Assembly (NCBI GenBank): GCA_938084905.1 | Contig: CALKEQ010000001.1 | Location: forward strand, 26,835-90,834 | Source: an uncultured bacterium | GTDB lineage: Bacteria > Desulfobacterota > Syntrophorhabdia > Syntrophorhabdales > JANXAF01 | Reading direction: 5' to 3' | Length of the DNA: 64,000 nucleotides | Part shown: one piece after another, positions 14,222 to 22,321 of the stretch | Layout: every line of letters starts with the position of its first letter | Numbering within the stretch: the stretch's first letter is position 1 | The notes under the pieces: generated by a model | Database searches by the model: none | The model's input: the letters and a program-made list of their open reading frames with translations, nothing else | Told to the model about the DNA's origin: nothing | Made by a program: the position numbers and the translations under genes

Positions 14222-14250
14222 TTGACAAAGCTGCCTTTTTGGGATAAAAG
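14222..14250 (+). promoter_or_regulatory. sigma70-like promoter for the etf-fdh operon
   Basis: TTGACA (14222-14227), 17-nt spacer, TAAAAG (14245-14250). AAGGAGGG RBS precedes the ATG at 14289. Confidence 0.45.
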
Positions 14251-14288
14251 ATTGTGAAATTTTTAATTAAGTGGCAAAGGAGGGCAAA

Positions 14289-15086
14289 ATGAAGGTCGTA
14301 GTCTGCGTAAAGCAGGTGCCAGATACGGAGGCGGAAATAAAGTGGGATGTGGAGAAAGGGGTTCTAAAAAGAGACTCCATGGATCCTATAACCAACCCGT
14401 TCGACGAATTTGCCGTTGAGGAAGCGTTGCTTACCCGCGAAAAATACGACTGCGAGATATACGCTATTTCAATGGGACCTGAAAGAGCCCAGGAGGTTCT
14501 AAGGAACGCCTTGGCCTTAGGTGTAAATGGCGTGTACCATATACTGGACCCCCAACTTTCCGGATCTGATACATTTGGAACAGCATATGCCCTTGCGAAA
14601 GCAATAATGAAGATAGGAGATGTGGACATAGTCTTTATGGGCAGGCAGTCAACAGATGGAAATACTGGAGTTGTTCCTGGAGAAGTAGCCGCCATTTTAG
14701 GATACACCCCTCTTACCTACGTTTCAAAGATTAGAGAGATAGATTTTCAGGGGAAAAGGATAGTTGTGGAAAGGGCCATAGAAGGTGGGTTTGAAGTTGT
14801 TGAAGCCAAATTACCGGCTGTTGTTTCCGTAATAAAAGGCATAAATGAGCCAAGACTTCCCAATCTGATGGGTATTAGAAGGGCCGCAAAAATGGAGATA
14901 CCTAAGTGGACATGTGACGATCTGGGCTTAGATAAGGATAAGGTTGGACTTTCAGCCTCCTCTACCAGAGTTGTGGAAATATCCGTTCCGCCACCTAAGG
15001 CTCAGGGCGAGATCCTAAAAGGTGATCTTGATGAGGTTGCGGAACAGCTTGCCTCCAGGCTATTAGATCTGAAGATTATAAAATAA
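14289..15086 (+). CDS. etfB: electron transfer flavoprotein beta subunit
   Basis: MKVVVCVKQVPD N-terminus and NEPRLPNLMGI motif. The ATG at 14289 with RBS is preferred over the track's GTG at 14271. Confidence 0.9.
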   Translation: MKVVVCVKQVPDTEAEIKWDVEKGVLKRDSMDPITNPFDEFAVEEALLTREKYDCEIYAISMGPERAQEVLRNALALGVNGVYHILDPQLSGSDTFGTAYALAKAIMKIGDVDIVFMGRQSTDGNTGVVPGEVAAILGYTPLTYVSKIREIDFQGKRIVVERAIEGGFEVVEAKLPAVVSVIKGINEPRLPNLMGIRRAAKMEIPKWTCDDLGLDKDKVGLSASSTRVVEISVPPPKAQGEILKGDLDEVAEQLASRLLDLKIIK

Positions 15087-15097
15087 AGGAGGAACAC

Positions 15098-19500: not shown

Positions 19501-19616
19501 TAGCCGAACGGATCACCTCCTTTGTTGAAGTTAACGAGGGTCTATCCCTGGAAGATGCCATATTTGAGGCGAGAAGATGCCTCCACTGTGATAGGGGGAA
19601 AAGGGTTGTAAGATAG
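16566..19616 (+). CDS. fusion: NuoF/FdsB-like NADH-FMN-[4Fe-4S] subunit + GltD/NfnB-like FAD NAD(P)H oxidoreductase
   Basis: 1016 aa. N-terminal 2Fe-2S domain (CSGASC...CMGPC). NuoF core (GLRGRGGAGFPTGLKW, ESCGQCTPCR). GltD part (NPFPASCSRICPAFCEGKC, RVAIIGGGPSGL, GIPPYRLPK, VLVVGGGSTAMDAAR). Confidence 0.85.
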   Translation: MKRDDLFRIKEERQRKAKEAKYEVFTCSGASCISSRSLEIKEALLHGLKKDNLMDRVKIIETGCMGPCQEGPLLYVKPEEIYYVRLTKEDIPEIIGTHIKEGKIVERLVWRNESSFFEKQKKVVLSNSGRIDPEDIEAYIEKDGYFALLKVLEEMTPEKVIEEILKSGLRGRGGAGFPTGLKWKLAREREADEKFVICNADEGDPGAFMDRAVLEGDPHAVLEGMAIAAYAIGAKKGYIYVRAEYPLAIKRLEIAISQARNYGLLGRNILEKNFDFDVDLRIGAGAFVCGEETALIASIEGKRGMPRPRPPFPVERGLWGKPTVINNVETFATVRHIILNGSSWFSSIGTENSKGTKIFALSGKVENTGLVEVPMGITLGEIVFDIGGGTPKGKKFKAVQTGGPSGGCIPPSLLNLPVDYESLKEAGAIMGSGGMIVLDEDNCMVNMAKYFVEFTMSESCGQCTPCRVGLKHLYDILDRITKGKGKPDDLIRLEKIAKEVRDSSLCGLGQTAPNPILSTLDYFRDEYEDHILRKRCKASVCASLFFAPCSNTCPAEVDVSRYVAYVCEGKLEEAFLTHMENNPFPASCSRICPAFCEGKCERGKMDDPISIREIKRIFADYALKKDIRFDPPKREKKERVAIIGGGPSGLSLAFYLTRLGYRPTLFEESEKLGGMMRYGIPPYRLPKRILDLEISRIVDAGVDVRLKKRVSSVRELLSQGFDAVYVSIGASLSQRLNVEGERSPSVLDGIEFLRRINEGEKIDLQGKRVLVVGGGSTAMDAARVALRLKAKDVFLSYRRTRLEMPAQKVEVEEAEEEGVKMLFLTNPVAFRTNGGGLEVEFVKMGLKGFDRMGRRNPYPIEGSQFSMPFDIAILCIGQKPNSQIFSEELEIEKDGTFKVDPDTLMTSIPGVFAGGDAVLGPATVVEAIGHGRKAAISIDKYFGYSGELPFGERQEVKTTYNEEEFLKETRRKKPNLKAVAERITSFVEVNEGLSLEDAIFEARRCLHCDRGKRVVR

Positions 19617-19624
19617 GAGGGAAA

Positions 19625-22321
19625 ATGGAAGTCGAAATTACAATAGATGGGAAAAAAATAAAGGCTCAGAAAAATGAAAACCTTCTGAGGGTAGCGAAAA
19701 AAAACGGGATATACATTCCCAGCCTCTGCTACTATGAAAAAATTTCTCCTACAGGGGTTTGTAGACTCTGTCTTGTAAAAGTGGAAAACATGAGAGGGCT
19801 TGTTCCGGCGTGTGCGACTTTTGTCACAGACGGGATGAAGGTCATTGCAAATGATGAGGAACTCTTCGAGCTTAGACGTGACATACTCGACATGCTTCTT
19901 TCAGAGCACAACGCCGATTGCATAGCCTGTGACAAAAACGGTTCCTGCGAGCTTCAGGATCTTGCCTATAGATTCGGCCTCGAATTGAAAAACAGAAAAT
20001 TCAGACCTCTCTGGCATGAACTGGAATTAAGAAGGGACGAATCCTCCTATGTCCTCTCCTTTGACAGTTCCAAGTGCGTTAAATGTCAGAGATGTATAAA
20101 GGCCTGCTACGAGATTCAGGGAAAGGGGGTCCTTTCATTTGCAAAAAGGGGTATGGAAACGTATCTTGTGGCAGGTTTCGGAACCTGGAAAGACTCTGAA
20201 TGTGACGCCTGCGGAGAGTGTGTTCAGGCATGTCCAGTAGGCGCGATAGTTGAAAAACCGGTCTTTGAAAGGGTACGAGCGATCGATGTGGAAAAAAAGG
20301 TGGAAACAACATGCCCTTACTGTGGAGTTGGATGCCAAATAGAACTCTGGGTGAAGGAAGGAAAAATTGTGAAAGTAAGAGGTCTCGATGAGAAACCTAA
20401 CAACGGCTCATTGTGTGTTAAGGGAAGGTTCGGTTTTTCTTTTGTCCATTCGGAAGAAAGGCTAAAATCTCCTCTCCTTAGAGAGGGAAACCAGTTTAAA
20501 GAGATAGGGTGGGATGAGGCAATAAGGATTTTTGTAGAGAGAATAAAAGAGATCAAGGAAAAATACGGACCAGAAAGCATAGCAGTCCTTGCTTCTGCTA
20601 AAATCACAAATGAGGAGAACTACCTTCTTCAGAAGTTTACGAGGGTTGTCCTGGGAACTAATAACATTGACCACTGTGCCAGACTTTGACATGCACCGAC
20701 CGTCGCAGGTCTTGCGGCGGCTTTTGGTTCAGGGGCAATGACAAACTCTTTAGAGGAACTTGAGTATGCGGATTGTATTCTCCTTACAGGCTCAAATACA
20801 ACTGAGACCCACCCTGTTACCGCCACATTCATAAAAAGGGCCGTACTTTTACATGGTGCCAAGCTCATTGTTGTCGATCCAAGGGAGATCGAGCTCGCCA
20901 AATACGCAAATATCTACCTTCAGCCCAGAAACGGGACCGATGTGGCATGGATAAATGGGATGATGCATGTAATACTTAAAGAGGGGCTTCACAACAAAAA
21001 ATTTATAGAAGAGAGGACAGAAGGCTTCGAGACGATAATCCCAATTATAGAAAAATTCACTCCTGAGAAGGTTGAGGAAATAACTGGTATCCCGAGGGAA
21101 AAGCTGATCGAAGCGGCAAGGATCTTTGCAACGGCGAAGAATGGCTCCATAGTCTACGCAATGGGAATAACCCAGCATATAACTGGAACGGACAATGTAC
21201 TGTCCCTTGCCAATCTCGCTATGATCACGGGAAATGTGGGAAAGGAGTTTTCGGGTGTAAATCCTCTAAGAGGTCAGAACAACGTTCAGGGTGCATGCGA
21301 TATGGGTTGCCTCCCGTCTTTCTTGCCTGGTTATGCAAGAGTGGAAGATGCTCAAGCAAGGAAAAGGTTTGAGGATTTTTACGGAGTGCCTCTTCCAGAA
21401 AAGGCAGGACTTACAGTTGTTGAAATGATGGAGGCTGCTATAGAGGGGAAAGTAAAAGCCATGTACGTAGTTGGTGAGAATCCCCTCCTTACGGATCCGA
21501 ATATCCCTCACGTTGAGAAGGCTTTAAAAAATCTTGAATTCCTCGTAGTTCAAGACATGTTTATGACAGAGACCGCAAAATGTGCTGATCTCGTTTTACC
21601 GTCCGCTTCCTTTGCGGAAAAAGAGGGTACATTCACGAACACTGAGAGGAGAGTATTGCCTGTAAGACCCGCTTTTGAACCACTCTACGGCTCAAAAACA
21701 GATCTGGAAATTATCTCTCTTCTTTGGAGAGCCATGGGAGGGGAAATCCGGATCAGTTCATCGAAGGATGTCCTCGATGAGATAAACAGGGTAGTCCCAT
21801 CGTACCGAGGAATAACGTATGAGAGGATAAAGTCTGGAGAGAGGATTCAGTGGCCCTGTCCAGATGTTAATCACCCTGGAACAAAGTACCTGCATAAGGA
21901 TGTTTTCGCAAGAGGGAAGGGTAAATTTCATCCCGTTGACTTTATCCCGCCTAATGAGTTGCCTGATGAAGAATATCCATTTTTGCTTTCAACGGGTAGA
22001 ATCATGTTTCACTACCACACTGGTTCAATGACAAGAAAGGTCTCTTCCCTTGAACTCTTCGCTCCAGAGCCATTTGTTGAGATTAGTGACAAGGATCTCA
22101 AAAGACTCAATGTAAAGGATGGGGAGATGGTAAAGGTCATTTCCAGAAGAGGAGAAATTACTCTTAGGGCCAAAAGGAGTGAACGAGTATTTGAAGGCTC
22201 AGTCTTTATCCCATTTCATTATGCGGAGGCTTCAGCAAACATACTGACCAACGACGCTCTCGATCCTATATCGAAGATTCCAGAGTTTAAGGTTGCTGCC
22301 GTAAGGATTGAAAAAATTTAG
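19625..22321 (+). CDS. fdhA: formate dehydrogenase catalytic subunit, selenocysteine-containing, with NuoG-like N-terminal Fe-S domains
   Basis: Track ORFs 19625-20689 and 20738-22321 share one frame. The UGA at 20687-20689 sits in HCARL-U-HAPTVAGL, the canonical Sec/Cys Mo-ligand position. 2Fe-2S, HX3CX2CX5C, two CX2CX2CX3CP and CPYCGVGC motifs lie upstream. Confidence 0.9.
20695..20728 (+). promoter_or_regulatory. SECIS-like hairpin directing Sec insertion at UGA 20687
   Basis: Upper stem CCGTCGCA/TGCGGCGG (20700-20707 / 20713-20720, one G-U pair) with apical loop GGUCU. Lower stem ACCGA/TTGGT (20695-20699 / 20724-20728). Starts 6 nt after the UGA. Confidence 0.7.

Follow-up and report, generated by a model that had tools for sequence, protein, structure and literature searches.

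Positions 14222-22321 (+) of a 64-kb stretch of bacterial DNA (referred to below as the window; coordinates are window positions unless a related locus is named) contain five co-directional genes in the order etfB, etfA, nuoE-like, nuoF::gltD and fdhA, that is, both subunits of an electron transfer flavoprotein (Etf) followed by a predicted selenocysteine (Sec) formate dehydrogenase (FDH), one subunit of which is a fusion of NuoF-like and GltD-like halves. All of the evidence considered here comes from comparative sequence analysis. A preliminary description of this DNA had placed the five genes behind one promoter-like site with junctions of 11, 9, -14 and 8 nt, and our reading of the open reading frames (ORFs), counting each gap from the stop codon, agrees with this. 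A hairpin/terminator scan found neither kind of element in the 9-nt junction between etfA and the nuoE-like gene of the window, as had also been stated, and every one of the domain labels given at that stage was confirmed by Pfam and NCBIfam. The NuoE-like protein matches the HoxE, NuoE and FdsG models of NCBIfam, in each case below the cut-off. In the window the five genes are almost certainly a single, tightly packed and co-transcribed unit.

The promoter-like site (Table 1) was missed by a consensus promoter scan because its -10 hexamer ends in G. Both hexamers are kept in 11 related loci, among them one (L164) that has no etf genes, and the block AGATTGTGAAATTTTT just 3′ of the -10 box (14251-14270) is invariant in 11 related loci, those named being L081, L082, L164, L167-L171 and L173; promoter and block are present together in every related locus for which upstream DNA is available. 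Mechanical ORF calling starts etfB at a GTG codon, 14271, upstream of the ATG at 14289 that is backed by a ribosome-binding site.

Table 1. Features of the five-gene locus and its surroundings (window positions)
Feature	Position	Strand	Basis and remarks
Promoter-like site, TTGACA-17 nt-TAAAAG	14222-14250	+	Direct reading; -35 at 14222-14227, -10 at 14245-14250
5′ leader, ATTGTGAAATTTTTAAT..., with ribosome-binding site AAGGAGGG	14251-14288	+	Invariant block in alignment and pattern matches; may hold an operator
etfB, Etf small subunit, 265 aa	14289-15086	+	Pfam ETF; ATG with ribosome-binding site AAGGAGGG
etfA, Etf large subunit, 327 aa	15098-16081	+	Pfam ETF and ETF_alpha; without N-terminal ferredoxin domain
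nuoE/hydC/bfuC-like [2Fe-2S] subunit, 162 aa	16091-16579	+	Pfam 2Fe-2S_thioredx, E 1e-48
nuoF::gltD fusion, 1016 aa	16566-19616	+	Complex1_51K, NADH_4Fe-4S, Fer4_20, Pyr_redox_2
fdhA	19625-22321	+	Fer2_4, NADH-G_4Fe-4S_3, Molybdop_Fe4S4, Molybdopterin, Molydop_binding
Selenocysteine insertion sequence (SECIS)-like hairpin CCGUCGCAGGUCUUGCGGCGG, GC-rich	20700-20720	+	Begins 8 nt after the UGA
mobA-like molybdenum cofactor guanylyltransferase gene	12974-13576	-	Pfam NTP_transf_3; NCBIfam MobA models below cut-off
Tetratricopeptide repeat (TPR) protein, 560 aa, and unannotated 162-aa ORF	22387-24554	+	Conserved downstream neighbours

The formate dehydrogenase core

By its domain content FdhA is a NuoG-like Fe-S N-terminus joined to a catalytic domain of the Mo/W-bis(pyranopterin guanine dinucleotide) type, and its C-terminal part scores 680 bits on the TIGR01591 Fdh-alpha model (cut-off 666). 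A single in-frame TGA at 20690-20692, in the context HCARL-U-HAPTV, splits the gene into ORFs of 354 and 527 aa, and the split is conserved in L081, L082, L164 and L165. The stem of the hairpin that follows, GUCGCA/UGCGGC in the window, becomes GUGGCA/UGCCAC in the genes for FdhA′, a paralogue found in L167 and L169, with pairing kept. It is because the TGA lies in an active-site context and the hairpin shows compensatory changes that we read the two as a Sec codon and its SECIS; active-site UGA, directly following hairpin and three Mo-type domains are together the features by which a Sec-FdhA is recognized. An Rfam scan of the window returned two tRNAs only, with no match to a SECIS family and no molybdenum cofactor riboswitch. 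At the position where the window FdhA and the FdhA′ of L167 and L169 have Sec/TGA, the FdhA′ of L173 (3284-4666) reads Cys (HCGRLCQSPTV), from all appearances a Sec/Cys switch inside one small clade.

The NuoF half of the fusion matches the flavin subunits of solved bifurcating enzymes (BfuB, HydB, NfnB, StnB) with E values of 1e-221 to 1e-176, the matches including NiFe-Bfu (7t2r_B), HydB (7q4v_B), NfnB (9n5u_B) and 8oh5_B, the last of which is labelled HoxF and which we take to be Stn. A complete GltD/NfnB-like module, with 2x[4Fe-4S], FAD and NAD(P)H site as judged from the sequence, makes up the other half, whose best solved relatives are the NfnA subunits of NfnABC (9n5u_A and 9bov_A, E 1e-111 to 1e-110) and in which a YRRTR stretch resembles an NADPH site. 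An N-terminal 2Fe-2S_thioredx domain occupies residues 18-96 of the fusion. Its C-terminal 2x[4Fe-4S] is the Fer4_20 domain of GltD and not a ferredoxin-like domain, the alignment with 7t2r_B reaching residue 599.

Four criteria that separate bifurcating from NADH-only subunits have been given by Losey et al. (2020), the bifurcating type being marked by Ala/Glu and Met in its NADH region, by a Phe close to the FMN and by GGPSG in the SLBB part, and the NADH-only signature, that of FdsB, being Thr/Ser and Lys/Ser/Ala, Tyr and no GGPSG, without extra clusters. The window fusion reads DEGDPGAFMDR, GAGAFVCGEETAL and QTGGPSGG, each of the bifurcating type, and on the strength of PGAFMDR, GAGAFVCGEE, GGPSG and the additional Fe-S domains, the last of these provisionally, in so far as Fer4_20 can stand for the ferredoxin-like domain, we count all four marks as bifurcating; GGPSG is invariant in an alignment of the fusion proteins. 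The preliminary description had assigned the core to the FdsGBA type, an assignment that we have given up in view of these residues and of the distance to FdsB chains, which match the NuoF half with E values of only 1e-117 to 1e-115, against 1e-221 for BfuB. What the window enzyme shares with FdsGBA of Rhodobacter capsulatus and Cupriavidus necator is the subunit logic of NuoE-like, NuoF-like and NuoG-FdhA components; it differs in having bifurcating-type rather than NADH-only residues and in its extra clusters. The core looks instead like a module of the Bfu/Hyl (bifurcating) type fused to an NfnA/GltD-like NADPH arm.

The closest parallels can be set out accordingly by component. With HylABC-FdhF2 of Clostridium acidurici and the Bfu family, for which a survey lists 82 Fdh-type gene clusters, the window core shares the NuoE-like subunit, a NuoF-like subunit with N-terminal [2Fe-2S] and the bifurcating-type residues, the NuoG-like Fe-S domain and a Sec-FDH catalytic subunit. 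It departs from them in three ways: the NuoG-like domain is fused to FdhA rather than being a separate HylA, a complete GltD module (FAD and NAD(P)H site) replaces or extends the ferredoxin-like C-terminus of the NuoF-like subunit, and etf genes precede the cluster. NfnABC (Nfn-Bfu) and StnABC have in common with it a Bfu-type BC core and a GltD/NfnB-like NADPH-FAD module; theirs, however, is carried on a NuoG-like A/C subunit with no catalytic metal site, whereas the window enzyme carries GltD on its NuoF-like subunit and has an FDH as A subunit, which places it outside NfnABC/StnABC. Because the homology of its GltD module to NfnABC is strong the enzyme may, although no member of that group, function in the manner of Nfn-Bfu. 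With marks of Bfu-type bifurcation and an Nfn-like NADPH site combined in it, the core could be one enzyme that connects formate with NADH and NADPH, and possibly with ferredoxin. We found no description of a NuoF::GltD fusion, or of a NuoE/NuoF::GltD/FdhA core, in a literature search in which most subscription journals were not covered.

A different reading of the core, compatible with any of the explanations of the Etf pairing considered below and in our estimation unlikely, is that of a non-bifurcating, dual-nucleotide FDH that uses NAD(H) at the FMN or NADP(H) at the GltD FAD, the GltD domain standing where true Bfu enzymes have a C-terminal domain that interacts with ferredoxin. The GltD Fer4_20 domain does occupy the position of the C-terminal 2x[4Fe-4S] ferredoxin-like domain of BfuB, and there is a purified precedent in FdhAB of Moorella thermoacetica, in which a Sec-FdhA is paired with a GltD/SfrB-like Fe-S flavoprotein (the beta subunit) that binds NADP(H), and which is simply NADP-dependent; the Moorella enzyme, however, has neither a NuoE/NuoF module nor Etf genes. 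Set against this are the four bifurcating-type marks of the NuoF half, the fact that its best solved relatives are all bifurcating enzymes, and the coexistence of a GltD module with bifurcation in NfnABC and Stn.

The core is not tied to Etf outside the immediate relatives of the window. The nuoF::gltD fusion is abundant, with at least 8000 candidates in a protein search, and a scan of one genome per GTDB species, in which fusion relatives were listed at identities of 52% or less, gave 42 fusion loci from many phyla among the matches listed. The nuoE gene lies directly upstream in 36 of the 42, an FdhA is adjacent in 13, and 15 have a NuoG-N-like subunit without Mo domain. Etf genes are present within 10 kb in none of the 42, of which 25 have at least 2 kb of upstream DNA. 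Since it stands alone elsewhere we read the core as a general, widespread module that would not need Etf. The nearest outgroup loci, L083 and L166 (62-64% identical), are NiFe-/FeFe-hydrogenase clusters, with NuoG-N-like subunits that are hydrogenase subunits; in both an unannotated gene of ~120 aa with no Pfam match (L083 7627-7989, L166 853-1230) lies between nuoE and nuoF::gltD.

Synteny in relatives and the type of Etf

Close relatives, reached through protein-identity look-ups, have NuoF::GltD proteins 74-82% identical to that of the window. L081 and L165 repeat the order etfBA-nuoE-nuoF::gltD-fdhA, and L170 has the L165 arrangement in yet another context. In L082, where the flanking genes differ, the etfBA-FDH order is kept except that a gene for a 79-aa ThiS/MoaD-like protein separates etfA from nuoE; the metagenome contig L084 reads etfB-etfA-moaD-like and then the start of nuoE. 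The inserted gene (L082 7275-7514, L084 1727-1966) abuts etfA in both and its product ends in GG, consistent with a molybdopterin-synthase small subunit serving the FDH.

A search with EtfA gave relatives that are closer in Etf (L167/L168, L169 and L173, 83-87% identical) and that have a different FDH, the promoter, etfB and etfA being followed by a single FdhA′ of 889 aa that is only ~50% identical to the window FdhA, with Sec in two of the lineages and Cys in L173. No NuoE, NuoF or GltD gene was found near FdhA′ in L167, L169 or L173. Downstream, L167 and L169 continue as the window does, with the TPR protein, the 162-aa ORF, a deacetylase, metal-resistance genes and a histidine kinase, and we conclude from these common neighbours that two alternative FDH modules occupy one syntenic slot. 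FdhA is the only component common to all of the Etf-linked locus types. In L167 (GCA_033581755.1) a gene for a 724-aa fusion of GltD-like and MvhD/HdrA2-C-terminal-like parts, followed by small and large subunits of a NiFe hydrogenase (4232-8860), sits just upstream of the block of tRNA, promoter and etfBA-fdhA′.

Altogether, every one of the 10 contigs with DNA downstream of etfA has FDH genes there, these contigs representing 8 lineages and at least 5 unrelated upstream contexts, and EtfBA is 79-89% identical across the FDH-linked lineages. The link thus far is confined to what would be, judging by leucyl-tRNA synthetase similarity, one uncultured Desulfobacterota family, in which it is persistent. 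The earlier proposal of a survey for synteny therefore has a divided outcome: adjacency of etfBA and FDH holds throughout the informative contigs of the clade and in several contexts, it is absent outside the clade, and one close relative, L164 (fusion 76% identical), has nuoE-nuoF::gltD-fdhA without etfBA. In L164 the sequence TTGACAA-N17-TAAAAGATTGTGAAATTTTTAAT, which is the promoter plus leader, survives ~540 nt upstream of nuoE; in this interval blastn, tblastn and six-frame comparison gave no remnant of etfBA, only promoter and leader (50 nt) being shared. A neighbour-joining tree places L164 within the clade and next to L165, an Etf-bearing sister, and with this nesting the loss of etfBA becomes the simplest reading.

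The junction between etfA and the FDH genes is similarly variable. No terminator was found there in the window (9 nt), L081 (22 nt), L082, L084 or L173 (15 nt), and the junctions of the window and L173 overlap ribosome-binding sites. In the 90-nt gap of L165/L170 a 9-pair GC hairpin is followed by TTATTTGTTT, the top-ranked terminator-like site of the region, and the etfA-FdhA′ gap of L169 has a stable hairpin and then U9 (z = -4.0, with 0 of 200 shuffles folding as well). A transcript end between etfA and the nuoE-like gene, which had been named as an observation that would speak against one operon, is accordingly not apparent in the window itself and may exist in these two lineages.

The variable junction bears on the possibility, which we regard as quite improbable, that the synteny is inert, that is, that etfBA joined an FDH locus once in an ancestor of the family and was kept by inertia with no functional connection, one FDH being replaced by the other through recombination between homologous fdhA genes. 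All of the Etf-FDH loci do come from one family-level clade, the junction ranges from 9 and 22 nt through a moaD-like insert and 90-136 nt with terminators to the complete absence of etfBA, and Etf is found at none of the 42 distant listed fusion loci, nor FDH at any of the 77 other Etf loci described below. However, the promoter-etfBA-FDH block stands behind at least 5 unrelated upstream contexts and must therefore have been moved or kept in one piece as the DNA on either side of it changed, both FDH types are found in exactly the same position relative to etfA, and the clade has lost a thiolase-crotonase linkage that is otherwise near-universal for this type of Etf. With the block surviving changed flanks, exchange of the FDH module and the loss of that linkage, it is unlikely that chance adjacency explains everything. 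To judge from the FDH-linked clade, the 10 of 10 contigs, the at least 5 contexts and the two types of FDH module, the pairing seems to have been selected.

The FDH-linked Etfs form one clade with 100% bootstrap support, in which L082, with its moaD-like gene, branches at the base and the two FDH types are interspersed. The nearest Etfs outside of it are 62-70% identical and belong to four-gene thiolase-crotonase-etfB-etfA clusters, found in at least 35 metagenome loci and also in metagenome-assembled genomes named Syntrophorhabdaceae or Syntrophus; in none of 77 other Etf loci does an FDH come directly after Etf. Since the divergence in Etf equals the distance in leucyl-tRNA synthetase, for which the window is 70-72% identical to Syntrophorhabdaceae, the FDH-linked Etf looks like a vertical orthologue of a β-oxidation Etf whose neighbours have changed. 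The EtfB recognition loop NEPRLPNLMGIRKAAK is identical in FDH-linked and thiolase-linked groups, the window reading R for K, and only 6-7 fixed differences, all conservative, separate the two. The window Etf is, as far as sequence can tell, a little-changed orthologue of the thiolase-crotonase-linked proteins. Its genes do not belong to a β-oxidation or butyrate cluster of the Bcd/Etf type: tblastn with thiolase and crotonase queries from L124 returned nothing in the window, L081, L082, L164 or L165, and Pfam annotation of ~40 window proteins gave no acyl-CoA dehydrogenase, thiolase or crotonase.

Among solved structures the five best matches to either subunit are without exception bifurcating Etfs (CarDE, Thermotoga maritima EtfAB, and the proteins of Acidaminococcus fermentans, C. 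difficile and LctBC), and human and Paracoccus ETFs score far lower. For EtfA the best are CarE and the T. maritima and A. fermentans EtfA proteins, and E values to the bifurcating Etfs run from 1e-90 to 1e-67. In the bifurcating-FAD site Arg146 of EtfA is 99% and Asp93′ of EtfB 100% conserved among bifurcating Etfs (PMC10279923), and the window has both residues, in MVRAAFGG (R146) and GSDTFGT (D93′), as do Bcd-EtfAB, CarCDE and LctBCD, the systems to which its Etf is closest. Unlike these, the window has no adjacent acyl-CoA dehydrogenase or GlcD-like partner, and its EtfA has no ferredoxin domain. It is possible that the window Etf bifurcates and thereby makes reduced ferredoxin.

A number of further observations were made at the Etf loci. 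A divergent gene for a GlcD-like FAD-linked oxidase, or a gene for a LarA-like lactate racemase, lies beside thiolase-crotonase-etfBA in L086 and L087 (5405-6907) and in L085 (5496-6755), and the window also encodes a LarA-like protein (37501-38793), which hints that Etf of the window type may serve lactate oxidation as well. NuoE/NuoF clusters convergent to Etf in L138, L147 and L153 were set aside as Bfu-type with a GltB-like protein and not FDH, and the GltD near Etf in L087 belongs to an ordinary NfnAB-like pair.

Possible coupling of Etf and formate dehydrogenase

The explanation that we favour, and that we put forward tentatively, is a selected and usually co-transcribed pairing in which an Etf of acyl-CoA redox metabolism and a self-sufficient bifurcating FDH would be coupled through shared NADH and ferredoxin. 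It builds on gene order, domains, signature residues and synteny, from which co-transcription, cofactors, bifurcation and metabolic coupling are predicted. Two separable redox modules would have been kept together by the family and, in the window, be transcribed from one promoter. The first, NuoE-like/NuoF::GltD/Sec-FdhA, would be a self-sufficient soluble FDH of the Bfu (HydABC/HylABC) type in which FdhA interconverts formate and CO2 and electrons pass through the NuoG-like Fe-S chain to the flavin and Fe-S core of NuoE/NuoF; this core, of the bifurcating type, would link NAD(H) and ferredoxin, and the GltD/NfnB-like FAD module on the NuoF C-terminus would add a port for NADP(H). The second module, EtfBA, being the orthologue of the Etf in the thiolase-crotonase-etfBA clusters of sister families, would most likely still serve acyl-CoA/enoyl-CoA dehydrogenases encoded elsewhere. 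In such a scheme Etf-dependent enoyl-CoA/acyl-CoA chemistry would make or consume NADH and reduced ferredoxin, and the FDH would balance both pools against CO2/formate, acting as electron sink or source. A net reaction that thermodynamics would allow is 2 NADH + enoyl-CoA + CO2 -> 2 NAD+ + acyl-CoA + formate.

Standard potentials are ~-430 mV for CO2/formate, -320 mV for NAD(P)H and ~-10 mV for enoyl-CoA/acyl-CoA, and NADH-driven CO2 reduction is feasible when pulled by enoyl-CoA reduction; oxidation of acyl-CoA to formate in a soluble system is not. The limits that these potentials place on direct coupling, together with the existence of Etf-free cores and the plastic junction, are what lead us to favour coupling at the level of pathways. 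A precedent is provided by the Bcd_EtfAB_H2ase gene clusters, in which Etf genes lie beside an enzyme that disposes of its low-potential electrons, there a hydrogenase and in the window an FDH.

The case for a tight coupling of Etf to FDH is weakened by three findings, the absence of etfBA from L164, the terminator-like hairpins after etfA in two lineages and the little-changed nature of the Etf. Other findings weigh against coupling through shared pools, or against the form that we have given it. The Etf partner is assumed, since neither the window nor any of the clade loci fetched shows a gene for an acyl-CoA dehydrogenase, thiolase or crotonase. The nucleotide loop of EtfB reads DGNTGVVPG, a deviation shared by the thiolase-linked relatives, where all five solved bifurcating Etfs have DGDT(A/G)QVG(P/S) (DGDTAQVGP in the Bcd-EtfAB, CarCDE and LctBCD comparison), and the Etf of Syntrophus aciditrophicus, itself one of the syntrophic Desulfobacterota, binds AMP ("a vestige of the FAD") and is non-bifurcating; bifurcating (group 2) Etfs are marked by a second FAD, and not AMP, in EtfB. 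Junctions that overlap ribosome-binding sites, as in the window and L173, are typical of subunits of one complex, and in L167, L169 and L173 etfBA is the only redox gene adjoining FdhA′, while the FdhAs that were compared (~50% identical to FdhA′) adjoin genes of the NuoE/NuoF type. The lone etfBA-FdhA′ loci would fit a direct partnership of Etf and FdhA better than they fit coupling through pools.

In a direct partnership, which we consider possible but rather doubtful, EtfAB would dock on the FdhA Fe-S domain, whether in short-lived contacts or as a stable subunit, and pass electrons to or from FDH there. In its bifurcating version NADH would reduce the bifurcating FAD of Etf, the low-potential electron would enter the Fe-S chain of FdhA, with CO2/formate replacing ferredoxin, and the high-potential electron would leave by way of the Etf alpha-FAD to an enoyl-CoA reductase; where FdhA′ alone is present Etf would be the NADH-binding module instead of NuoEF. 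The idea draws on the adjacency in all 10 informative contigs, in at least 5 contexts and with two FDH modules that are only ~50% identical, on the lack of NuoE, NuoF and GltD genes near FdhA′, on the tight junctions of 9 nt (window) and 15 nt (L173), and on the lack of β-oxidation genes near the window and clade loci that were searched. A structure from S. aciditrophicus offers a model of docking, since EtfAB there binds an Fe-S protein (EMO) through EtfB with the FAD ~12 Å from the clusters. In that organism Etf is likewise functionally tied to FDHs, by a formate-cycling loop; the link, however, is a membrane quinone loop with a periplasmic FDH, and no etf-fdh gene adjacency has been described. 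Against direct transfer stand L164, with promoter and FDH but no etfBA, the hairpins and T-runs between etfA and the FDH genes in L165/L170 and L169 (z -4.0), a docking loop that is the same as in the thiolase-cluster orthologues, a core that already has two nucleotide sites and that occurs without Etf at the 42 distant listed loci, and, reasoning from standard potentials, the impossibility of oxidizing acyl-CoA to formate without energy input.

Direct transfer is most attractive for the etfBA-fdhA′ loci, which have no other diaphorase gene nearby. The more specific proposal that EtfAB is a genuine redox partner of FdhA, with its NADH site standing in for NuoEF at these loci and CO2/formate as the low-potential branch, we hold to be a doubtful one; were it true it would define a new class of Etf-dependent enzyme, and in the window variant EtfAB would be added to the Bfu-type core and its Nfn-like NADPH arm, so that a single assembly could hold as many as four flavins. 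For a fixed complex of all five subunits the support is poor, because cores occur without Etf (the 42 listed loci and L164), the junction is plastic, the docking loop is unchanged and FdhA is the sole common component. The preliminary suggestion of etfBA joined to a three-flavin assembly thus survives in part, namely in the adjacency, which is kept; with a lone FdhA′ after etfBA in three lineages, lacking NuoE and NuoF::GltD, it is FdhA and not the three-flavin assembly that appears as the conserved partner of the Etf locus. The accompanying statement that no characterized FDH has an Etf partner holds in the literature that could be searched: neither such an enzyme nor an etf-fdh gene cluster was found, most subscription journals not being covered. 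To our knowledge, the Etf partners that have been described are all flavin or Fe-S/quinone enzymes, and none is an FDH.

Neighbouring genes and biological context

The -35 box follows 36 nt after a pair of genes for tRNA-Lys and tRNA-Glu. The mobA-like gene, which is divergent from the operon and is also present in L081, plausibly has an accessory role for it. Downstream of the FDH genes, and with either type of FDH, the TPR protein and the 162-aa ORF recur in the window, L081, L167 and L169 but are absent from L082; they are probably outside the Etf-FDH system. As an operator for the leader, Rex was considered and rejected: TTGTGAAATTTTT resembles a half-site, and the pattern TTGTGAA-N4-TTCACAA with up to 3 mismatches has 7 matches in the window against 5.0 expected.

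Elsewhere in the window (30341-38793) a gene for a 573-aa GltD-like protein, which ends in a PorD-like 2x[4Fe-4S] domain, overlaps the beginning of a 2-oxoacid:ferredoxin oxidoreductase alpha gene (32040-33197), which is followed by beta (33158-34045), a TRAP transporter and the LarA-like gene, in what may be an NAD(P)H-linked 2-oxoacid oxidoreductase cluster. A single ORF at 4801-5778 encodes a fusion of two domains, one an NADPH-dependent FMN reductase and the other low-molecular-weight phosphatase/ArsC-like.

What is new at this locus is, on present evidence, that a Bfu-type FDH bearing an Nfn-like arm is persistently partnered with Etf at the level of the genes, though within one lineage. 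An enzyme that by itself links formate, NADH, NADPH and possibly ferredoxin would be relevant to biocatalysis of CO2 reduction. In methanogenic and syntrophic communities electrons pass between species mainly as formate and H2, and how electrons of acyl-CoA redox chemistry connect to CO2/formate is a central bioenergetic question; the family-wide genetic link between Etf and a cytoplasmic FDH, maintained across two FDH modules, presents a testable candidate for a soluble route.

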